Origin: Rubripirellula sp.
GTDB lineage: Bacteria > Planctomycetota > Planctomycetia > Pirellulales > Pirellulaceae
DNA: 64,000 nt
Assembly (NCBI GenBank): GCA_965216875.1
Contig: OZ244207.1
Coordinates: 5,216,001 to 5,280,000 of the forward strand
Direction: 5' to 3'
Within the stretch, counting starts at the first letter, position 1. Each line of letters opens with the position of its first letter. Of the stretch, positions 18,911 to 57,992 are shown piece after piece. Below the pieces are notes generated by a model. The model ran no database searches and was not told the origin of the DNA. It saw only the letters and a program-made list of their open reading frames with translations. The position numbers and the translations under genes were made by a program.

Positions 18911-19418
18911 TCGTTCTCGCAAAACGGCGTGCCAAAACCCATGGCGGGACGCCAAGCCGAGCAAAATGTGGTTTGAGTAACAAAAAGCGCGCCTGCGACG
19001 CGACTTTCTGGAACCTGAAATCTAGCGCGTCAACGAGTTCCTGGCGAGGCGGGTAGGCATGCGCGTTTCACTCGCGTCGTGGCAATGGCGTTTCGATGCC
19101 GCTGTCCGACGTCACCTTTCCGCTGTCAGGCCACCTTGCCAGGCCACATCGAAATCTCGATTTTCGTATTGCACGCCGCTGAGACATACTGTCTGTTGTT
19201 AATGGGAAACACTGGGGATCAATTCGAGGCACAATGCGCAATTGTTGCCCACAAACGCTCCGGTCTACGTATCCTGGTACTTACGGTTCCTGACGGGAAA
19301 GCCTTCGACCTTTGGCCTATCTGAACGCAATCCAAAGCGAGCGAGGCAGTGTGAACGCAATCTCCACACATCGGTTTGTGAAGCAATTAACTCTTCTTTT
19401 CAAAGGGATAACGGGGTC

Positions 19419-21431
19419 ATGAAATCGAGATCATCGATTTGGACGTGTACTGGCATGGGGCTCGTCTGGAGCCTGTTGGCCGTCACCGTGATGAGCAGCT
19501 TTTCTGCCGCTGCAGAGAGTGATTCGAAAACCAAAAAATCGGACCAACTGCAATCACCAACTCACCGGCAAGTCCGGATGATCACGCCCAAGGTGAAGGG
19601 TAATCCGGTCGAACTGCATACCATGGCAACCAATGCCGATGGGTTGATCGTGGCCGGCGTTTCATCGGGCTCGCAGGGCATGGTGCTGTTGATCGATTCC
19701 GAAGGCGAAACCAAATCCCAGTGGAACCTCGAGTTGACTCCAACCGGCGTCACCGTCGCGCCGGACGGAACCATCTTTGTTGCGGGCAGTGGCCGAATTG
19801 CTGAACTTGGCCAAGACGGCGAAGTTACAAAGATGATCGATTCGCCTCACGTCGGTGACATTGACGAACTCAAAAAGAAGACGGCCGACGCGATTCGTCA
19901 AAGCCGCAAACAGATGAGCGCATCGTTCGGAAAGCAGATTGAAATGCTGAAAGAACGGATTGCCGACATCGAAAAGAAAGAGGAAGCCGATCGCAGCAAG
20001 CTCGAGACGGCCCAGCTTGACGCGTTCGAGCAACAACTCGAGATGATCGAAGCCTATGCGGCACCCGAAGACGCTGACATTCCGGACGAGTATTTGAATT
20101 CAGCGATTCAACAGTCGTTGAACGTCACGTCGATGGCTGCTTCGGACAAGGATGTCTTCTTGTGTGCGATGGATCCTGGCGGTGGCGGCTATTCCGTATG
20201 GCGAGTTGGCCGAGACCTCGACACCGAATCGGCAGAGATGATCATGGACGGCCTGCGCGGTTGCTGCGGCCAAATGGACATTCAATGCTGCAACGGGCAA
20301 CTTGTCGTCAGTGAAAACACCAACTTCAAAATTGCAGTCTACGATCGCAACGGACGAGCCCAAAACACCTTTGGTCGTCGTGACCGAACCAGTCGAGGCG
20401 GTTTCGGAAGCTGTTGCAATCCAATGAACTCACTTCCCATGGCCGATGGCACCGTCCTGACGGCCGAGTCGTCGATTGGACACATCAAACGATTTGACAT
20501 GGACGGCAACCTCGTCGCGTATATCGGAAAAGCATCGATTGGCGGTGGCTGCAAACACTGTGCACTTGGGTACGACGAAGAAAATGACTTGTACTACATG
20601 ATGTACGAAGACAAGAACGCAATCTGCGTGCTTGCCAACAACGCTGACACTCCGATGTCGGTTGCCGAACAAGAACTCGAACAACGTCGCATCGACTTTC
20701 TGGCGCAAGCGGCTGGCAAATGGGATGTGGACGAAGGCAAGGCGGACGAAAGTTCGACCGGCGGTCTGTTGAGTCTGTTCGGTGGTGGTCGCGGTGGGTC
20801 ATCACAACACCCCGTGACATCACTGCAAATCGAATCCAATGGCAACGCCAAAATCCTCGACGGGATGTACAAGGCTTACGGTGATGTCGCCGGCCTTGAA
20901 TTGATGCAATCGGATTCGGAAGAGGAATTCGCTTTCGCACTGGCAATCGACCAAGTCCGCTTCCTCGAAGGCACTTGGAAGTTTGAAAGTGATGATTCGG
21001 CAACGGTCTCGTTCCAGGGTCTCACCAGCGTGAAGATGAAACGTGACGCTGCAGCAGACAAGAAGTGTGCCGGCGCAAACTGCAACGACGAAAAATGCGC
21101 CGACGAGGATTGTCCCAATCACAACAAACCTGCCGAAGCGGATGTCGCGGACATTGTCGTCGCCATCGACTCGGTCGAAGAGGCGATGGAGGATTTCGAC
21201 GGCTCGTTTGACCAAGCCTACGAGTTCTCCTCGACCGCTTTGACGCCCAAGTTTGAATACAAACTGGTCGGCAGCGGAAAACTTGGCGACGAGCCCGAAT
21301 CCGCACTCAATGAGCTTGGTGCCGATGGCTGGGAATACTGCGGCCGCTTGGGCAAAAAACTGATGTTCAAACGTGCCGTTTATGAAACCGGCGCATTGCT
21401 CGGCCTTACCGATCTTTCAGTCGAAGAATGA
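19419..21431 (+). CDS. Secreted Cys-motif NHL/6-bladed propeller-like protein with coiled-coil insert and C-terminal DUF4177-like motif
   Basis: Signal peptide; PTGVTVAPDGTIFVAG; GCCGQMD, SCCNP, GGCKHC; C-terminal FEYK...LNELGADGWEY. Confidence 0.6.
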   Translation: MKSRSSIWTCTGMGLVWSLLAVTVMSSFSAAAESDSKTKKSDQLQSPTHRQVRMITPKVKGNPVELHTMATNADGLIVAGVSSGSQGMVLLIDSEGETKSQWNLELTPTGVTVAPDGTIFVAGSGRIAELGQDGEVTKMIDSPHVGDIDELKKKTADAIRQSRKQMSASFGKQIEMLKERIADIEKKEEADRSKLETAQLDAFEQQLEMIEAYAAPEDADIPDEYLNSAIQQSLNVTSMAASDKDVFLCAMDPGGGGYSVWRVGRDLDTESAEMIMDGLRGCCGQMDIQCCNGQLVVSENTNFKIAVYDRNGRAQNTFGRRDRTSRGGFGSCCNPMNSLPMADGTVLTAESSIGHIKRFDMDGNLVAYIGKASIGGGCKHCALGYDEENDLYYMMYEDKNAICVLANNADTPMSVAEQELEQRRIDFLAQAAGKWDVDEGKADESSTGGLLSLFGGGRGGSSQHPVTSLQIESNGNAKILDGMYKAYGDVAGLELMQSDSEEEFAFALAIDQVRFLEGTWKFESDDSATVSFQGLTSVKMKRDAAADKKCAGANCNDEKCADEDCPNHNKPAEADVADIVVAIDSVEEAMEDFDGSFDQAYEFSSTALTPKFEYKLVGSGKLGDEPESALNELGADGWEYCGRLGKKLMFKRAVYETGALLGLTDLSVEE

Positions 21432-22297
21432 TGCGAACGTTCGCCAGTCTTTTCGCCGCGATCGCGATGATCGCGGCGTCCGTCCCCGCATTCGCTGACC
21501 CGTTTGTCTTGGTGGTCATGGACCCATTAAGCAAGCCACTGTCATGCGATTGTGTTCAAGGATACGCCCAGCGCGAGTACAAACTACTCGGCAAACACCT
21601 CGAGGCTGAATTAGGTCGCGAAGTAAAAGTCGTTTGGTATGAGTCGCTTGCCGAAGCACTCGATGAAACCGATGGCCACGCTGACTTGGTGATCGGAAAA
21701 CACTCGGTCGTGTTGGCCGATGAGAAATCGACGGGACATCAAGTCAAACCGATTGCTCGCTTGACGGGCAAGGATGGGGAAGTCGATCAAAAAGGTCTGA
21801 TCGTCGTTCGCCGAGAGGATTCGGCAACGTCACTGAGCGACTTGCAGGACTATCGAATTCTGTTTGGCCCAACCGACGCCGAAGAGAAATCATCGGCACC
21901 CGAGGCCGCTCTTGTCGCCGCCGGTATCGAGCTCTCGAAGAAACGAGAACGATTCGGAGCATGCAGCGAGGCGGCGACTGCATTGTTGAAACTGCCCGCG
22001 GACACCGACGCGGCTGCAGTGATCAGCAGTTATGCCGAACCACTGCTCGAAGGCTGTGGTTCGATCAAGAAAGGGGATCTTCGGGTTGTTGGCGAAACGC
22101 AGCCCGTTCCGTTCATCACCGCGTTTGTCGCCGAGGACATGCCGAGCGACCTTTGTGCTCAAGTTGAAATCGCATTGGTAAAGGCTGGCACGAAACCAGA
22201 GTTGCTGCTCGGCCTGGAAACACTTGCCGGGTTCCTAACTTGGGAAACCAGCAAGCCAGCACCAAAAAAAAAAGTGACCACAGCAAACCTTCGATAA
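21428..22297 (+). CDS. PhnD/phosphonate-type periplasmic substrate-binding protein with CxC motif
   Basis: Signal peptide; LSCDCVQGYAQR, LEAELGREV, GLIVVR, LRVVGET. Ends PKKKVTTANLR across an A10 run. Confidence 0.7.
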   Translation: MMRTFASLFAAIAMIAASVPAFADPFVLVVMDPLSKPLSCDCVQGYAQREYKLLGKHLEAELGREVKVVWYESLAEALDETDGHADLVIGKHSVVLADEKSTGHQVKPIARLTGKDGEVDQKGLIVVRREDSATSLSDLQDYRILFGPTDAEEKSSAPEAALVAAGIELSKKRERFGACSEAATALLKLPADTDAAAVISSYAEPLLEGCGSIKKGDLRVVGETQPVPFITAFVAEDMPSDLCAQVEIALVKAGTKPELLLGLETLAGFLTWETSKPAPKKKVTTANLR

Positions 22298-23442
22298 CCA
22301 ACGCTGCGGATTGGTCTCAGTTTCGTGGCTCGGATCGATCGGGCCGTGTCGCGCATCTTCCTGACCGACTTCCGACCGAACAGGACTTGGTTTGGGAAGT
22401 TACCTTGCCAAGCCCCGGCGTTGGTGGCCTGATGGTTGCCGATGGAATGGTCATTGTCAGCGGCCGTGATGCTACCGATCGCAAAGACCGATTCACTGCA
22501 TTCGACCTGCAATCGGGCGACCAACGTTGGGTGTTTCAATACGATGCTCCAACCGACCTCGACTATGGCAACACACCGCGAGCAACACCGGTTTGGGTCG
22601 ACGGTTTGTTGATCACACTTGGTGCCACCGGAATGCTGTCGGGGTTGGATGGACAATCGGGGGTGCCGCTTTGGCGGATTGATTTGGCACAAGAATTTGC
22701 TGCCTCCGTGCCAACCTGGGGATTCAGTGCGTCGCCGCTTGTCGTCGGCGATCACCTCTTTGTACAAGTCTCAGGCGATGCCTCCCTGGTCGCGATCGAC
22801 ATGATCAACGGCCAGACCCAATGGCAGGTCAAGGGCGCCGAACCGGCGTACGCTTCGATGATGTTGGACATCGACGGCAAGACGATCCTTGGCGTCGACC
22901 AAGACGGCTACTTCGCACGTTCGAGCAAAGGCGGCGAGTTGCTTTGGTCACTCGAACCAGAGATTTCGGGTGACTTCGGCGTCCCGTCTCCAGTCGTCTT
23001 CGATGCAGGTGTGGTGTTCACTGGCGAAAACAACGGCGTTCAATTGATTGGCCGACAGGGCGATTCGTTAGCGAAATCCCGCGCGGCTCTGAACGACCTT
23101 TTGATTCCTGATTCACACACCCCGGTTTTGGTCGACGAGACACTTCTTGTCGCTTACGACGGTTTGCACGGACTCGATGTCACCGACGACTTGGCAGAGC
23201 GTTGGTCGATTGGCGAGTCGATCATCACGACCTATGCATCCATCATTGCATCGCCAAATCGTGTACTCGTGATGACCGAGGAAGGGGTATTGGCTCTCTT
23301 CGAATTTGACGACCACAAAGCGAAGTTGCTCGACAAACAAACCATCGCCTCGTCCAAATCGGCTGTCCTGTCGCACCCCGTCGTGGTCGGTGATCGGCTT
23401 CTGGTTCGACTTGGCAACGTGGTCCGTTGTTTCAGGCTGTAG
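22240..23442 (+). CDS. PQQ-like (BamB-type) beta-propeller; no own signal peptide, possibly reached by frameshift
   Basis: DWSQFRG, PRATP, WGFSASPLV, repeated G...W blades. Overlaps the upstream ORF by 58 nt in the -1 frame. Confidence 0.75.
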   Translation: MGNQQASTKKKSDHSKPSITNAADWSQFRGSDRSGRVAHLPDRLPTEQDLVWEVTLPSPGVGGLMVADGMVIVSGRDATDRKDRFTAFDLQSGDQRWVFQYDAPTDLDYGNTPRATPVWVDGLLITLGATGMLSGLDGQSGVPLWRIDLAQEFAASVPTWGFSASPLVVGDHLFVQVSGDASLVAIDMINGQTQWQVKGAEPAYASMMLDIDGKTILGVDQDGYFARSSKGGELLWSLEPEISGDFGVPSPVVFDAGVVFTGENNGVQLIGRQGDSLAKSRAALNDLLIPDSHTPVLVDETLLVAYDGLHGLDVTDDLAERWSIGESIITTYASIIASPNRVLVMTEEGVLALFEFDDHKAKLLDKQTIASSKSAVLSHPVVVGDRLLVRLGNVVRCFRL

Positions 23443-23464: not shown

Positions 23465-24862
23465 ATGAAGTTACCAACCCGCTACCCACTGATCCAAGAT
23501 CTCGGCTACCCCGATGGCGTGCCCGAAGCACGCCGCCGCTGGGTTGCTGATGCCAAAATGCGTCGACGTTGGCAACATCTCGGCCCCATCATTGCTGCGC
23601 TCGTGGTCACGATGACGTTTTCGATGTTTGGCGTCCTGCCATGGGCTCTTCGACGTGTTGCATCGCCGCAACAACTGGCCAACCAGCTCAATGCGCCGAT
23701 GCCAATGGGCAACGCTCATCTCGGCGCCGAGTATTACAACATCGCTTCGGCGATGGTCGACGGTCGCGGGTTTGCAGACCCTTTTGTGATCGAAACGGGT
23801 CCTACCGCGTGGATGCCACCGCTGCTGGTTTGGCTGCAAGCCGCTCTCATCTCCGTGCTTGGTGGCGATCGTTTTCTTGTCATGCTTGCGGTGGTCTTAT
23901 TGAAAACGATCGTGCTGGCAAGCTGCGCGGTCCTGATCGTTCGACAAGGCAATCGATCGCTCACAGGCTGGGCAGCCTTTGGCGTGATCTGCCTGTACTT
24001 CGTCTCCGAGCACCATGACTGTTTCGCATTCACTCATGACAGTTGGCTGATTCTTGGATCAGTCACCGGTACCCTTTGTGGGTTGGTCTGGGTCGATGGC
24101 AACCTTCGCCGTGGAACCTGGACGCTCGGCAAAACGATCGCTTGGGGATGTTTCGGCGGAATCGTCGCGTTGTCGAGTCCTGTGGCCGGTTTCGCCTGGG
24201 CCGTCGGCACGACCTGTTGCATGTCAGTTCGCGCGCCGAAGGCTTGGATCGCAGCAGGGATCATTTCGATGGCTGTGATTACACCATGGGGGATTCGAAA
24301 CAAGGTCGTGCTGGGAAAATTCGTCCCGATCAAAAGCAACGTCTTTTTCGAGTTTGATCAATCGATGGCCGTTGATAACGACGGCCTGCTTGATTGGTCC
24401 ACCTTTGCAACGCACCCTTACCACGAGAATGCCGAACGCAAGAAATATGCACAGATGGGTGAGATCGCCTACTTGGAAACGAAGAAGGAACGGTTCTTTG
24501 ACCAAGTCGCCGCCAACCCTCGTAAGTACGCCAATCGCGTTAGCCTTCGACTGTTTGCAACAACCGTCTTGCCGATTGGATTCAGTGGCTACAAACAGGG
24601 CAGTTGTTCGCTTCCGCTGCGTTGGTTGATCTACCCACTGCCACTGATCGCAATCATCGTTTTGGTCGGGTTCTGTCGGCCGCTGACACCGATCCAAAAG
24701 TGGGCGATCGTTCTGTACGCCGCGTATCTATTTCCTTACGTCCTTTGTTCCTACTATCCGCGGTACGGCTTCCCCCTGATCGCAATTAAGATGCTGCTCT
24801 GTTTTTGGGTGATCGAGGCGATTGTGCTCCGATCGCGTAAGTCGCAATCAGGCGTGGTATAA
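23465..24862 (+). CDS. GT-C-like multi-pass membrane protein
   Basis: EYYNIA..MVDGRGFADPF, TAWMPP, PWGIRN, FVPIKSN, PRY. Confidence 0.6.
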   Translation: MKLPTRYPLIQDLGYPDGVPEARRRWVADAKMRRRWQHLGPIIAALVVTMTFSMFGVLPWALRRVASPQQLANQLNAPMPMGNAHLGAEYYNIASAMVDGRGFADPFVIETGPTAWMPPLLVWLQAALISVLGGDRFLVMLAVVLLKTIVLASCAVLIVRQGNRSLTGWAAFGVICLYFVSEHHDCFAFTHDSWLILGSVTGTLCGLVWVDGNLRRGTWTLGKTIAWGCFGGIVALSSPVAGFAWAVGTTCCMSVRAPKAWIAAGIISMAVITPWGIRNKVVLGKFVPIKSNVFFEFDQSMAVDNDGLLDWSTFATHPYHENAERKKYAQMGEIAYLETKKERFFDQVAANPRKYANRVSLRLFATTVLPIGFSGYKQGSCSLPLRWLIYPLPLIAIIVLVGFCRPLTPIQKWAIVLYAAYLFPYVLCSYYPRYGFPLIAIKMLLCFWVIEAIVLRSRKSQSGVV

Positions 24863-37216: not shown

Positions 37217-38518
37217 ATGAACCGATCACTTCTGCCATCCCAACTCGCCCTCATTGTGTTCTGCGTTACAGTCTCGCTGGGCCCAGTCGCTCTTTGTAAC
37301 GAAACCGATTGGGCACAGTGGCGTGGCCCTGATCGCGACGGACACGCCGCAGATCAATCGTTGCTGAAAAGCTGGCCCGAAGGTGGGCCGAAACTGAAGT
37401 GGACGTTTTCCGATTCGGGCGTGGGTTATTCTTCGGTCGCGATCTCAGACGGGTTCCTGTACACGATGGGCTCGGACAAAGAGAACTGCTATGTCATTTG
37501 TGTCGATGCCAAGACCGGTACGGAGTCATGGCGTCAATCGATTTCACGTGCTGGCGTCAACGGCGACTACTTGGGTGGTTGGGGCGTTGGGCCACGAAGC
37601 ACGCCAACCATCGATGGCGGACAAGTCTTTGCATTGAGTGATGTTGGCACGCTCGCCTGTTTGACACTCAAAGGTGACATCACTTGGAGCGTCGACTTGG
37701 TCGCTGATTATGGCGGATCGATTCCCAAATGGGGTTACAGTGAGTCGCCACTGATTGATGGCAACCGTGTTGTGGTCACGCCAGGCGGAGACAACTTCAT
37801 GATTGCCCTCGACCGCAAGTCGGGCGATAAGATTTGGGGCAGCTCGGGCGACACACCGGTCGCCGAGTACGTTTCGGTGATGAAGGGCAGGGTAGGGGAG
37901 ACCAATTACTACGTGACAGCCAGTACGCCAGGTCTCCTTGCCTTTGACTGCGAAAGTGGCAAACAACTCTTCAGCGATGAAGCCACCGGCAATCCGACCG
38001 CTGTCATCCCAACGCCGATCATCACCGGTGACCTGCTGTACCACACCAGCGACTACGGCGCGGGCAACACGCTGTTGAAACTCTCATCAAATAGCGAGGG
38101 TATCGACGCGGAATCGGTCTACGCTCTGCAAGGCAAGACAATGCTGAATCATCACGGCGGCGTGGTGTTGGTCGACGGAACCATTTACGGATTCAGCAAA
38201 ATGAATGGCGGCGTTTGGATGGCGCAAGATCTTGAGTCGGGTGACCTGCTTTGGAACGAAAAGATTGGGCGTAACCGAAGCGGTTCGATCTGTTACGCCG
38301 ACGGCATGCTCTATTGCTACAACGACAAAGACGGCAGTGTCCATTTGACCGAAGCAAGCCGAGATGGTTGGTCTTCCAAAGGAAGCGTTACGCTACCCAA
38401 GCAAACGGACATTCCCCGTGACCGCGGTGCCATCTGGGCTCATCCGATCGTTGCCAATCAAATGTTGATCATTCGCGACCAGGATTTGATCTACGCCTTC
38501 GACATTGCCGGCGACTGA
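37217..38518 (+). CDS. Secreted PQQ-like beta-propeller protein
   Basis: Signal peptide, then DWAQWRGPDRDG, GPRSTPT, WGYSESPL, WAHP. Confidence 0.88.
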   Translation: MNRSLLPSQLALIVFCVTVSLGPVALCNETDWAQWRGPDRDGHAADQSLLKSWPEGGPKLKWTFSDSGVGYSSVAISDGFLYTMGSDKENCYVICVDAKTGTESWRQSISRAGVNGDYLGGWGVGPRSTPTIDGGQVFALSDVGTLACLTLKGDITWSVDLVADYGGSIPKWGYSESPLIDGNRVVVTPGGDNFMIALDRKSGDKIWGSSGDTPVAEYVSVMKGRVGETNYYVTASTPGLLAFDCESGKQLFSDEATGNPTAVIPTPIITGDLLYHTSDYGAGNTLLKLSSNSEGIDAESVYALQGKTMLNHHGGVVLVDGTIYGFSKMNGGVWMAQDLESGDLLWNEKIGRNRSGSICYADGMLYCYNDKDGSVHLTEASRDGWSSKGSVTLPKQTDIPRDRGAIWAHPIVANQMLIIRDQDLIYAFDIAGD

Positions 38519-54544: not shown

Positions 54545-55803
54545 CGCAGTTCCTCCTTTTGCTCGATGCGTTGCACCTCGACCCACGTTTCCCGGGGACT
54601 CTGTTCGACGATCGCGAGCAAGAACGTCCCGAGCTCGGCCGCATCTCCCACGCGTGGCAAACGCTCGTTGTTGCGTTGAATGAAACCAACCACCGTGGTG
54701 ACCGATTCATCAGGCGTCTCCATCCCCAAACGCTTGGCCAATCGCCGCAAGCTCATCGAACCGAGCACACGAAAGCGGCCGGGAGCGATCTCTTGGAATG
54801 CCGCCTCTTCGATCGATTCGTCGGCTGCGCGGCGTGGGTCGAGCCCGCGACGCAAGATGTCGTCGATCGAAAGTGCGCCGACCACTTCGCCAAATTCATT
54901 GACCACCGCAGCGACCGAACGATTCTCGCGGATCAATTGATCGAGCACTTGCGAAACAAGCGCCGACCAGGGGACGTAGATGACCGGTTCACAATTGCCA
55001 GCGAGATCATCCATCTGACTTGGTCGCAACATGGTGATCGCAACGGAGCCCGTGATGGCGCCACCTTGATCGGTGACCATCAAGTAGCCGCCAGGCGGTG
55101 TCCCGTCGGCGATCGCGTCGATGCTGACATCGGCCGAGACCATGGTCAGCTTGCTGCGTGGACGCATCAGTTCACCGACGCGGGTTTCGGCAAACTCGAC
55201 CAAACCCTTGAGCACTTCCTTTTCGCGTTGGATCATCACCGCGTCGTCCGTCCCCAACTCGATCGCGCGTTCGATGTCTGCCAGATCGATCTCGGTCTCG
55301 GGCTGAAACCCGGGCCAAATCAATCGACTTGCCAACAAGTTCGCTGCGCGCACCACAGGCAAGATTGGGCTGACCAAGCGAACGGCCAACGAGAGTGGTG
55401 GGCCAACCATCATTGACAAACGCACCGGCGCGAGGACCGCGACACTCTTTGGCAACATCTCACTAAAGAAGATGATCGTCAGCAGGCTGACGATCGTAAA
55501 AACGATCGCCGCCGACGGTCCGGCTTCGGGGTCCGCTTCCAACTTTGCACCGATGATCGCGGCGATTGCAAAGTAAAGCATGTTGATCAGCAGATTCCAA
55601 AACAGGATCGCTGAAAGGAGACGTTCTGGATCATCGAGCAGACGCAGCGCGATGCGGCCGCTAACGCCACCGCGCGCCAGTAGGGCGCGTCCACGTTTCT
55701 GGAGTGAAAAAAGTGCGGCCTCACTGCCGCTAAACAGGGCGCTAAAAAGAGTCAGCACCCCCATCGCTAAAAGCCAAAGCCATGCGTCAGCGATCCAGGT
55801 CAA
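54541..55803 (-). CDS. CNNM/CBS/CorC (TlyC-like) protein
   Basis: SALFSGSEAA, FSEMLPK, LMRPR, VVNEFG, RLPRVGD. Confidence 0.87.
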   Translation of the reverse strand: MTWIADAWLWLLAMGVLTLFSALFSGSEAALFSLQKRGRALLARGGVSGRIALRLLDDPERLLSAILFWNLLINMLYFAIAAIIGAKLEADPEAGPSAAIVFTIVSLLTIIFFSEMLPKSVAVLAPVRLSMMVGPPLSLAVRLVSPILPVVRAANLLASRLIWPGFQPETEIDLADIERAIELGTDDAVMIQREKEVLKGLVEFAETRVGELMRPRSKLTMVSADVSIDAIADGTPPGGYLMVTDQGGAITGSVAITMLRPSQMDDLAGNCEPVIYVPWSALVSQVLDQLIRENRSVAAVVNEFGEVVGALSIDDILRRGLDPRRAADESIEEAAFQEIAPGRFRVLGSMSLRRLAKRLGMETPDESVTTVVGFIQRNNERLPRVGDAAELGTFLLAIVEQSPRETWVEVQRIEQKEELR

Positions 55804-57569
55804 CCGCCGTCTCCACCAGCCCCGCGATCACGCTCGAGCGAGACATCGAATTCGCTCAGCGCGGGCACCATCATGGCTGCTGTGGTGAACCCATAGCCGA
55901 CAATCAAAGGAAAGACGACCAACAGATGGTCGGTCTGCAGCAAGAACTGGGTGATCACATAAAACGTCACCAGCGGCAACATAAAGGAGGCCGCAAAAAT
56001 GGCGGACGACGGATTACGCCAACCGAGCGATGCAAACAACGCCGCACCGCCACCCAAAATCATGACCAAGAAGGGCGCCAACTGGTACTGAAACGCACCG
56101 CGAAAGCTGACCATGATCGTCATGCAAATCGCGATGCCAACGCACAAGAAAAAGACCGTCCCGAGACTGGCCAACGTCGCCGTGCGTCCCGCGGCATAAT
56201 TCAATCCCGAGTGAATGCCCAACATCGAAACGAAGATGTAAAGCATCGCCCCGCCAACGATCGTGTAGCACATATTCTCGAACGTCATCACATTGGCCTG
56301 CCCCAAATACAGGACCAACAGCAACGGCAGGATGATCATTTCTTTGGCAACGTAAAGCACGCCCAGCAATTTGCCAAAAACAAATTCGCTCGGTCGCAGA
56401 TCCGTGACCAGCAATAGATCGAGTGCTAAACCATCTCGCTCGCCGGTCACCGCGTTGACAGCGAGTGCATTGACCAACACCAGGCTGATCACACCGATCA
56501 TCGCCAGCGGAAGCGTTGCCGAGGGCAGGGCACGTCCGATCCGCGCGGCAGGTTCAAATGCGACTCCCGTCTGAACTTGGTAGTAGACGATCGCTGCAAC
56601 CAAAGCGAACAACAATGCAAAGGCGACGCGGATCACGACCACTTTGCGGCCGTAGGCCCAGGTCCGAATCTCGCGCCAAAGGATGGGATTGTTCCAAACC
56701 GGACGTGGCGCGCGTACTTTCCAGCTCGTCGGCGTTGCCTCTGATTCGGCCTCTTCACCCGTTTCGGGCTCGGGCGCTTTCATGCGAACTTCGCGCGACG
56801 GGTTCCAAACTCGCACCCGCGCCACACCAAGGGCCACGACAAGAATCGCCAGCGTGACGGTAACGCCCACGAACATACTGACGGCCGTTGCCACTTCCGC
56901 GTTCAAACTTGCCATCGGCGAAGCCACGGCGAACAAAGCTCCCGCGGGGCTAAGAACCAAACGCAAAGCTGCTGGTACCGCATCGATACGACTGACCACC
57001 TCGCCGACCACGACGTACATCAACAGCAGCAATACGGTCAACGCGATCGCTTGGAACGTTTTCTCACGCCACATGCCCACGACCGTTCCAATCGACCCGG
57101 CAAAGACGACCGTTGCTGCGGTGACCGCGTAAACCCCGAGCACTTGGCCTGGCGAAACGCCGCCGAACAGTGGCAGCGTCAACATGAGCGGCAAGCTGCA
57201 GACCAACAGCGATAGAGGCGCAAGCAGCGTTGCGGTTAGTTTTCCGGCAACGACTTCGAATCCGGAGAGCCGAGTCAGCAACAGCAAGATCAGCGTTCGA
57301 CGATCCTTTTCCTGAGCCACACTGCTGGCCGCCCCGACGGCCGCGAGACTGCTCAGGATCAACAGCTGGAGTGGGGCGAGGATCGTAAACATCCACCCAC
57401 CGAATCTTGCCGCATCCGAGGCGGTTGCAAGTGAGCGGGCACCATCGAGCACCAGGTAACCGGTGGCCAAAAGAGTGAAAAGCGAAAGCACGTAAACCGC
57501 ACGAGCCAAGTAGGTCTTTGGCCGTTTGGGGACGATGATCGCCTCACGGTTGAAAATCGGTCCAAGCAT
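55800..57569 (-). CDS. ABC-2-type permease with internal duplication
   Basis: EKDRRTLILLLLT..GKL and ERDGLALDLLLVT..GKL halves joined by NPILWRE. Confidence 0.82.
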   Translation of the reverse strand: MLGPIFNREAIIVPKRPKTYLARAVYVLSLFTLLATGYLVLDGARSLATASDAARFGGWMFTILAPLQLLILSSLAAVGAASSVAQEKDRRTLILLLLTRLSGFEVVAGKLTATLLAPLSLLVCSLPLMLTLPLFGGVSPGQVLGVYAVTAATVVFAGSIGTVVGMWREKTFQAIALTVLLLLMYVVVGEVVSRIDAVPAALRLVLSPAGALFAVASPMASLNAEVATAVSMFVGVTVTLAILVVALGVARVRVWNPSREVRMKAPEPETGEEAESEATPTSWKVRAPRPVWNNPILWREIRTWAYGRKVVVIRVAFALLFALVAAIVYYQVQTGVAFEPAARIGRALPSATLPLAMIGVISLVLVNALAVNAVTGERDGLALDLLLVTDLRPSEFVFGKLLGVLYVAKEMIILPLLLVLYLGQANVMTFENMCYTIVGGAMLYIFVSMLGIHSGLNYAAGRTATLASLGTVFFLCVGIAICMTIMVSFRGAFQYQLAPFLVMILGGGAALFASLGWRNPSSAIFAASFMLPLVTFYVITQFLLQTDHLLVVFPLIVGYGFTTAAMMVPALSEFDVSLERDRGAGGDGG

Positions 57570-57992
57570 CGATGTCTGCCGTGATTGGGCGGTATTTCGC
57601 TGAGGGTATTGCCGGGGGGTTTGGTCGACTCTGCCAATCCGGACGGCGCGGCTGAGACGTCGATATGACTAATAGGGTACCCAGAACGGTTTGGTTCATC
57701 ACCCGGTCCACCGAAGTACCGCAATGCCCCTTTTTTTTCTCCAACCGCTACAAACCGAACAACGATCATCCCAGAGGGTGGTATCAGAGCGAAGTGACGT
57801 CATTTGTGCCGCATTGCGGCGTTTCACACCGCCGGCGCACTATGGTTCCAGTACGGGGACGTTCTGCGTCATGCACCCAACACCGTGCATCGTCACGTTG
57901 CAACTCGGGTCATCGACGGGGGAACACAAACGCCCGGGATCAGAACAACGCGGAACCTCACACGCCACAGCTGTCCCACCAAAGCAACCACA

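Follow-up and report, generated by a model that had tools for sequence, protein, structure and literature searches.

We analyzed a 64,000 nucleotide (nt) window (the whole stretch of DNA under study; contig OZ244207.1, positions 5,216,001 to 5,280,000) of the planctomycete Rubripirellula sp., in which a run of ten A's lies at the junction between a pair of open reading frames (ORFs) that overlap. The zero frame, ORF1, encodes a substrate-binding protein, and the -1 frame, ORF2, encodes a β-propeller. In the assembled window sequence, the ten A's at 22264-22273 follow C-A-C-C and are followed directly by GTG. The features at the junction are as follows.

21428..22297, + strand: ORF1, the zero-frame product, a 289 amino acid (aa) PhnD/PF12974-type substrate-binding protein with the C-terminus SKPAPKKKVTTANLR and then a stop
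22264..22273, + strand: the A10 candidate slip site, read as CC[A AAA AAA AAA] GTG in the zero frame and as ACC [AAA AAA AAA A]GT in the -1 frame
22274..22297, + strand: the zero-frame tail VTTANLR and the TAA stop (22295-22297), which close the short product
22273..23442, + strand: the -1-frame continuation (ORF2), comprising a 12-residue linker SDHSKPSITNAA, the motif DWSQFRG (22309-22329) and a BamB-like PQQ_2 β-propeller that extends to the TAG at 23440-23442

Read from the ATG at 21428, the zero frame crosses the run as CCA AAA AAA AAA GTG ACC ACA GCA AAC CTT CGA TAA and ends at 22295-22297. Open from 22168 to the TAG at 23440-23442, the -1 frame reads ACC AAA AAA AAA AGT GAC at the run, with the junction translation TKKKSDHSKPSITNAADWSQFRG. 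By arithmetic on these coordinates, a -1 shift or one added A would yield a fusion of 282 + 389 = 671 aa. A preliminary description of this DNA had placed A10 at 22264-22273 with a zero-frame stop shortly after it and the propeller in the -1 frame, and had predicted that a -1 shift or an extra A gives a single exported fusion of about 670 aa; our reading of the sequence agrees on both counts. The run is also the sole homopolymer of at least nine in the window (64 kb, GC content 0.566), where about 0.02 A or T runs of at least ten are expected under an independent-base model. The next longest homopolymers are one T8 and three runs of seven. The T8, second-longest in the window (57731-57738), seems to fall between the start of the minus-strand gene at 55800-57569 and small ORFs and probably is intergenic.

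The two domains are readily recognized by Pfam. ORF1 matches PF12974 (Phosphonate-bd) with an E value of 2.7e-23 and 83 bits (cut-off 27) over residues 48-266 of 289. Inspection by eye places a signal peptide at residues 1-23 (21428-21496), MMRTFASLFAAIAMIAASVPAFA followed by DP, with cleavage between AFA and DP and no lipobox Cys. The nearest solved structure by sequence is the phosphonate-binding protein 5jvb, a distant likeness (E 9.4e-05). ORF2 matches PQQ_2 (E 1.4e-22), and its nearest solved relative by sequence is BamB (8orr, E 9.9e-10); we describe it as an 8-bladed PQQ-like propeller whose fold resembles that of BamB, without filing the protein as BamB.

We asked how the same junction is arranged in relatives. 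A total of 257 relatives were found, taking one genome per species, and the best 80 loci were kept, with the domains located by tblastn. Both domains were present in 77 of the 80, the other three loci starting at or near the junction; together with the window this gives 78 places. The propeller is at -1 in 52 of the 78 (51 loci and the window), and all 52 have a junction run of A8 (9 places), A9 (38) or A10 (5). The zero frame stops 0 codons after the run in 27 of these and 1 codon after it in 19, such that the binding protein ends in ...KK(K) with a stop 0-1 codons on in 46 of the 52 split places. In-frame continuous fusions were found in 24 of the 77 loci, and an A run of at least eight is absent from 23 of them. 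No locus pairs an A-run with the +1 frame. When the run-bearing junctions that can be read on both sides are counted, 52 are at -1 and open, one is at -1 and blocked (L068), one is in frame and none is at +1. Two loci that begin just upstream of the junction (L035, L045) have the same ...KKK-stop and -1 continuation as the other split loci. As the sign of programmed recoding among orthologs, the preliminary description had proposed an A run kept out of frame, with ...KKK at the ends of the homologs; the out-of-frame run was found in 52 of the 78 places.

The single in-frame fusion with a run belongs to a Fuerstiella metagenome-assembled genome (L060, 2853-2863) and has A11 in its linker, TCA AAA AAA AAA AGC. 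This run might be the reverse arrangement, in which slippage truncates the product, a recent in-frame derivative, or a homopolymer miscall.

Within the split loci, conservation is concentrated on the run itself. In an alignment anchored at the run end, eight A's are invariant, C precedes the run in 41 of 52 and G follows it in 46 of 52, all other positions carrying less than 0.55 bit; the junction consensus is C-A9-G. The linker between the run and the W-motif ranges from 3 to 73 residues, and it is therefore the nucleotide run, rather than a peptide, that is conserved. Homopolymers of at least eight are scarce elsewhere: 77 occur in 500,878 nt of loci, and 55 of these are the junction runs (53 in the junction windows plus those of L035 and L045). 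About two A8+ runs per strand are expected in the loci if bases are independent. A8 runs in four further loci (L026, L073, L077, L079) were considered as junctions of both domains and rejected, as they are K-rich stretches or gene ends. In two of these loci, L077 (2112-2119, Singulisphaera-labelled) and L079 (459-466, Gemmataceae), an NHL-like upstream gene ends with A8 and a stop 3-4 codons on, giving the C-termini ...KSEKKNAN and ...KASKKNKR. In L077 the -1 frame past the A8 closes after about 20 codons, with no fusion evident, and in L079 the upstream gene is present in two tandem copies.

Several observations bear on whether the propeller could be made independently of ORF1. The propeller lacks a signal peptide of its own. 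In the -1 frame of the window, the TTG at 22240 is the sole ATG, GTG or TTG upstream of DWSQFRG, and the stretch from the run to the motif has none. The first ATG falls at 'MVADG', past the motif, which is where the database gene call (336 aa) begins, inside the conserved domain. An independently exported propeller is illustrated by a paralog in the same window:

37217..38518, + strand: a paralogous stand-alone PQQ_2 propeller (E 2.5e-23) with an N-terminal signal sequence directly before DWAQWRG

The start-codon scan and the hydrophobic N-terminus seen before DWAQWRG in the paralog bear out two further statements of the preliminary description, namely that TTG 22240 is the only -1-frame start with the first ATG after the motif, and that the paralog at 37217 carries a signal peptide before the same motif. 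Across the family, the propeller frame is devoid of ATG, GTG and TTG codons upstream of the W-motif in 33 of the 52 split places; counted from the run to the motif only, it is devoid of them in 42 of 52. In five loci a propeller-frame stop overlaps the first A's of the run. No stops were found inside the ~380-aa propeller match in any of the 52, with propeller identities to the window of 34% to 62%. The lack of stops despite identities down to 34-40% indicates that the propeller frame is under selection, which excludes decay.

These results speak to the explanation that the locus is two genes, with the propeller translated alone from TTG 22240 or by re-initiation past the ORF1 stop, or with a decaying pseudogene downstream. 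A 4-nt overlap of the ATGA type would also yield a -1 offset, the TTG at 22240 is available, and gene callers do emit a 336-aa protein. Nevertheless, we consider this explanation extremely improbable, given that a start codon is wholly absent ahead of the first conserved motif in 33 of 52 places, that the product from TTG 22240 would have no signal peptide whereas the paralog and the fusions are exported, and that the database call begins within a conserved domain. For a pseudogene, the frame would have had to stay intact in 52 of 52 places across deep divergence.

Protein databases are bimodal for this family. Among the 94 best relatives of ORF2 (E below 1e-40; our own count), 40 are roughly 520-700 aa with both PF12974 and PQQ, and 54 are shorter calls without PF12974. 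The close two-domain relatives are roughly 680 aa long, and the propeller-only relatives, roughly 330-370 aa, have N-termini at scattered internal positions. Searching representatives with ORF1 gave the same two peaks, 36 proteins of at least 600 aa and 76 of 255-400 aa; a KK(K) tail closes 20 of the shorter group.

On a tree of the propellers, split loci are found in the Pirellulaceae, Planctomycetaceae, Gemmataceae and Isosphaeraceae. The split or fused state changed at least eight times on this tree, with four changes forced by well-supported (starred) branches. These repeated changes indicate that lineages moved between a recoded and a hard-wired fusion, with the run gone when it was not needed. 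The association between the run and the split state has a raw Fisher p of 1.4e-18, a value that ignores shared ancestry. The closest relative of the window, L001 (62% identity in the propeller, 73% in the binding domain), has A10 in the same phase. A second member of the window's starred nine-row clade, L003, is split with A9 and a stop four codons later, and the window's clade therefore uses the split form. Contigs labelled Akkermansia muciniphila, Chitinophaga and Candidatus Kuenenia (L016, L036, L042, L044, L058) nest among the Planctomycetaceae and Pirellulaceae on the tree; these placements likely reflect mislabelled bins or binning contamination, not gene transfer.

The distribution of frames also allowed us to evaluate phase variation, in which a hypermutable A tract would switch the propeller part by replication slippage. 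Homopolymer tracts are the classic switch of contingency loci (passages of PMC3711429), the product here is exported, and the run length differs (8, 9 or 10) between species. A switch, though, would be expected to show genomes in the 'on' state and both off-frames; what we observe is 52 places at -1, none at +1 and a single run in frame. Moreover, the length differences are edge substitutions that keep the frame, as A8 in phase 0 shares its 3´ phase with A9 in phase 2, and an off-state would have to persist across families of a phylum with the downstream frame intact. The preliminary description had left phase variation as an option. With 53 junctions at -1, none at +1 and one in frame, it is disfavored, and we regard it as very improbable.

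Our preferred interpretation, drawn from comparison of the sequences, is that the A-run serves as a programmed recoding site, conserved within the inter-domain linker of an exported protein, to which we assign a probability of roughly 0.85. Standard decoding would give a 289-aa periplasmic PF12974 binding protein ending in PAPKKKVTTANLR, with the stop seven codons past the run. A change to the -1 frame would give a 671-aa protein with the signal peptide, the binding domain, a short disordered linker and the BamB-like 8-bladed propeller. By one route, RNA polymerase would slip on the T10 template and add one A; by the other, the ribosome would slip by -1 on A_AAA_AAA. Either route would create the same ...PKKKSDHSK... 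junction, and a single message with one start codon and one signal peptide would thereby supply both a free and a tethered binding protein. The preliminary description had likewise proposed two products made at a set ratio; the orthologs support the recoding part of that proposal, and the set ratio is conjecture.

Structure prediction is consistent with a slip site in a flexible region. We modelled a natural in-frame fusion homolog, P0004 (689 aa), from an alignment with 45 other fusions. The model has two confident domains, with most 10-residue blocks at a predicted local distance difference test score (pLDDT) above 85, joined by a disordered linker at residues 279-307 (pLDDT < 50); the predicted template modelling score is 0.63, and the placement of the domains relative to each other is uncertain. 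Compared with BamB chains, the modelled propeller gives target-normalised template modelling scores of 0.76-0.77 at 15% identity. Since the junction corresponds to the disordered inter-domain linker of a natural fusion, the slip site is predicted to lie in a structurally free tether, and the KKK encoded by the run may be structurally costless there.

A number of points weigh against the recoding interpretation. Two loci do not fit: L055 (2216-2332) lacks a run, has its propeller at +1 and is placed on a long branch (1.18), and L068 (943-1026) has the same A8-AAC-TAG junction as its close relatives L049, L057 and L074 together with a TAG in the propeller-frame linker. Both may be pseudogenes or assembly faults. 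A third locus, L064 (285-1124), has a stop inside the binding-domain match to ORF1, on a contig with a coverage of 2.4, and here the stop probably is an assembly error. The tree was made by a 'quick' method, and 27 of its 74 inner branches are unsupported. Only four phylogenetically independent pairs were available to relate the run to the split state, for which the sign test gives p = 0.125 with no power to reach significance. No conserved stimulator typical of efficient -1 frameshifting was found, in a search that did not extend to pseudoknots, and the clues to the mechanism, discussed below, pull in opposite directions. That the fusion is produced, at what ratio and by which machine, are things we infer from sequence. 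Finally, the A10 phase and the seven-codon tail of the window are shared only with L001, so that if both runs were under-called, the true run could be A11.

This last point is part of the explanation that the window carries an assembly or sequencing error and that its true run is in frame (A11 or A8), making ORF1 and ORF2 an ordinary fusion. Long homopolymers are error-prone on some platforms, and 24 of the 77 loci are in-frame fusions, a common form in the family, one of them (L060) with an in-frame A11. On the other hand, 53 run-bearing junctions are out of frame, all at -1, against one in frame, whereas random miscalls would yield both +1 and -1. Many of the contigs have short-read assembler names (k141_, NODE_). 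For the window in particular, L001 independently shows A10 in the same phase, and this agreement of two assemblies speaks for A10; L003, of the same clade, is split and has A9. We judge an error in the window to be improbable. The caveat of a homopolymer sequencing error, raised in the preliminary description, is implausible for the family (53 at -1, 0 at +1) and stands for the A10 of the window.

Granting the recoding interpretation, we considered whether the shift is made by the ribosome or by RNA polymerase. One possibility, to which we give somewhat less than even odds, is that the shift is essentially ribosomal, a -1 step on an A_AAA_AAG-type heptamer helped by the adjacent stop, with RNA polymerase slippage minor. 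In 42 of the 52 places the run finishes in the zero-frame phase A_AAA_AAN, where N is G in 36, C in 4 and T in 2; the other ten offer A_AAA_AAA. One phase class thus dominates though the class changed at least five times on the tree. The placement of the zero-frame stop after 0 codons (27 loci) or 1 codon (19 loci) favors the ribosome as well, and so does the direction, -1 in 52 of 52 run-bearing split loci. The criterion of Antonov et al. assigns orthologs that share a direction to ribosomal frameshifting and those with mixed directions to transcriptional realignment (passages of PMC3711429), and A_AAA_AAG is tied to high frameshifting efficiency in E. coli (passages of PMC4066793). By the same token, slippage would be expected to leave runs indifferent to phase and free to differ in direction, and the runs show neither, with 42 of 52 in one phase and a uniform direction; this expectation is a tendency, not a strict requirement.

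Other features point to the polymerase. The heptamer requires six A's and a G, yet at least eight A's are present in 52 of 52 places and at least nine in 43 of 52. A run that is always at least eight long points to selection for run length, a hallmark of polymerase slippage. The A/T run of about 8-9 or more that is associated with slippage is thus present at every junction, never dropping below eight. Selection against slippage is evident in many genomes from runs of nine A/T, and A9 is the site used by Thermus thermophilus dnaX (both from passages of PMC1088944), and Mg-chelatase cassettes with 11, 9 and 7 A's gave 63%, 40% and 10% frameshifting, respectively (passages of PMC3711429). The window itself has A_AAA_AAA and then GTG, with the stop seven codons on, a distance found in the window and L001 only. 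AAG makes up 57% of the Lys codons in both domains, so these genomes probably have tRNA-Lys(CUU). A_AAA_AAG is especially slippery in E. coli because that bacterium has no tRNA-Lys with anticodon CUU. No tRNA-Lys gene was found in the window, which has tRNA-Ser only, or in the 60 loci scanned, which have no tRNA.

RNA elements that would assist a ribosomal shift likewise were not conserved, either as a 3´ structure or as an upstream Shine-Dalgarno (SD)-like element. For the 60 nt downstream of the run, the family has a mean z of -0.55 against -0.13 for controls (p = 0.025, a weak difference), and the window has z values of +0.43 and +1.08. The 60 nt 3´ of the window run have a folding energy of -10.5 kcal/mol (z = +1.08), a stability equalled or exceeded by 171 of 200 shuffles. 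The weak stem at 22276-22316 pointed out in the preliminary description consequently folds no better than shuffled sequence, and a downstream stem was rejected as a stimulator for the window and is at most weak for the family. An upstream SD-like element was rejected as a conserved feature, with GGAG, GAGG or AGGA within 20 nt upstream in 5 of 52. Overall, we expect both routes to contribute. For the A10 of the window we would put transcriptional slippage slightly ahead (about 55:45), because of the A_AAA_AAA followed by G, the stop seven codons away and the lack of a stimulator; at the majority of sites, where a stop comes after A_AAA_AAG, the ribosome may account for a larger share.

The genes on either side of ORF1 and ORF2 differ in how well their position is kept:

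19416..21431, + strand: the upstream partner gene, 729 aa, with the likely start at ATG 19416 ('MKSRSS...'; the longest ORF runs from TTG 19242)
23465..24862, + strand: a polytopic membrane protein of 465 aa with no Pfam match, 22 nt past the propeller stop

The TGA of the upstream gene overlaps the ATG of ORF1 (ATGA, 21428-21431). Its 729-aa secreted product has a hydrophobic stretch after the start and Cys-rich motifs such as GCCGQMDIQCC, SCCNPM and GGGCKHC, and no Pfam family was matched at E <= 0.001. The first match in a protein atlas was an NHL-repeat cluster with a score of 0.83, which we treat as a lead only. A relative of this protein is encoded directly 5´ of the binding-protein domain, by tblastn, in 70 of the 80 loci, whether these are split or fused, and the upstream gene likely is a functional partner of the binding-protein gene. 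The 465-aa membrane protein, by tblastn, is kept at its position in L001 and L003 only, the two closest relatives, and probably is outside the conserved cassette. Besides the upstream protein of no recognized family and the membrane protein downstream, the neighbors scanned comprised an esterase, a Glt symporter-like protein and, on the other strand, two ABC-2 membrane proteins; none of all these matched PhnC or PhnE, in a scan that took in some of the ORFs within 10 kb. The conserved neighbor is the upstream NHL-like protein, not a transporter, and we would call the binding protein PF12974-type only, not PhnD proper. Our working inference is that a periplasmic ligand-binding module may operate with the upstream protein, in a free form as well as in one tethered to a scaffold propeller.

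The junction can be compared with known recoding sites. In Shigella flexneri mxiE, one inserted nucleotide at a homopolymer run joins two overlapping ORFs (passages of PMC1088944). The likeness extends to the overlapping ORFs, the one non-templated nucleotide and the longer recoded product; the differences are that mxiE encodes a cytoplasmic transcription activator in one genus and uses a U run, whereas the planctomycete gene encodes an exported two-domain protein, uses an A run and is present in several families. The dnaX gene also has an A-rich site and two products that share an N-terminus and are made at a set ratio, by -1 frameshifting on A_AAA_AAG in E. coli and by slippage on A9 in Thermus thermophilus, orthologs thus reaching the same result by either mechanism (passages of PMC1088944 and PMC3711429). 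Unlike here, the recoded product of dnaX is the shorter one. The E. coli site is flanked by an upstream SD-like element and a 3´ stem-loop. Neither of these is conserved at the planctomycete junction.

A Mg-chelatase cluster found with GeneTack (Antonov et al. 2013) is similar in being a non-mobile gene with a -1 shift, a poly-A run of 7-11 and A_AAA_AAR. It differs in protein family and taxa, and potential 3´ structure was noted there (passages of PMC5009743). In reporters in E. coli, the efficiency of the Mg-chelatase site rises with run length (passages of PMC3711429 and PMC5009743). The OrfA/OrfAB arrangement of IS3 and IS1 insertion sequences (IS) resembles the junction in that a short zero-frame product is extended to a fusion by -1 frameshifting on A_AAA_AAG or A_AAA_AAC, motifs described for IS elements (in part from PMC4066793), and both heptamers occur here. 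Those elements, by contrast, are mobile and usually have a pseudoknot or stem-loop stimulator, and for them a heptamer is enough by itself, whereas no run here has fewer than eight A's. Contingency loci share a homopolymer within the coding sequence for a surface or exported protein, and differ in that the frame here is fixed at -1 across 52 loci, with no toggling.

Full-text searches found no published description of a PF12974-propeller frameshift; the surveys and the review were covered in part, and a prior mention in them is possible. This gene family is not listed in the searched parts of PMC3711429 or the searched part of PMC5009743. The survey of Antonov et al. 2013 included only two Planctomycetes genomes (passages of PMC3711429), and the phylum thus was barely sampled by earlier genome surveys. 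We regard the junction as a known kind of recoding site in a new gene family. Conserved programmed frameshifting is rare in non-mobile, non-phage bacterial genes, the usual list being prfB, dnaX and copA, with candidates such as Mg-chelatase.

The comparative support for the planctomycete site is unusually strong, as 50-odd species-level genomes keep it, with in-frame 'controls' that have no run alongside. Gene callers emit a signal-less, truncated propeller (336 aa in the window) or would flag a pseudogene, and because of this truncation the predicted 671-aa type of product is absent from protein databases for over half the family. A site with signatures of both polymerase and ribosome slippage is also a good test bed for separating the two.

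A more far-reaching possibility, which we consider unlikely though worth stating, is that the junction is an ancient recoding device, spread over several families and working without the usual RNA stimulators, whose efficiency is regulated. If so, it would be among very few non-mobile bacterial genes with deeply conserved frameshifting, and would offer a natural system for studying the balance of transcriptional and ribosomal slippage on one site. Lysyl-tRNA supply, ATP and GTP pools at the polymerase, or the efficiency of termination at the adjacent stop could then regulate the shift, and the ratio of free to propeller-tethered binding protein would report the state of the cell. Ligand captured by the free binder would be handed on to the tethered copy, or the two would compete, with the tethered copy acting alongside the conserved upstream NHL-like protein.

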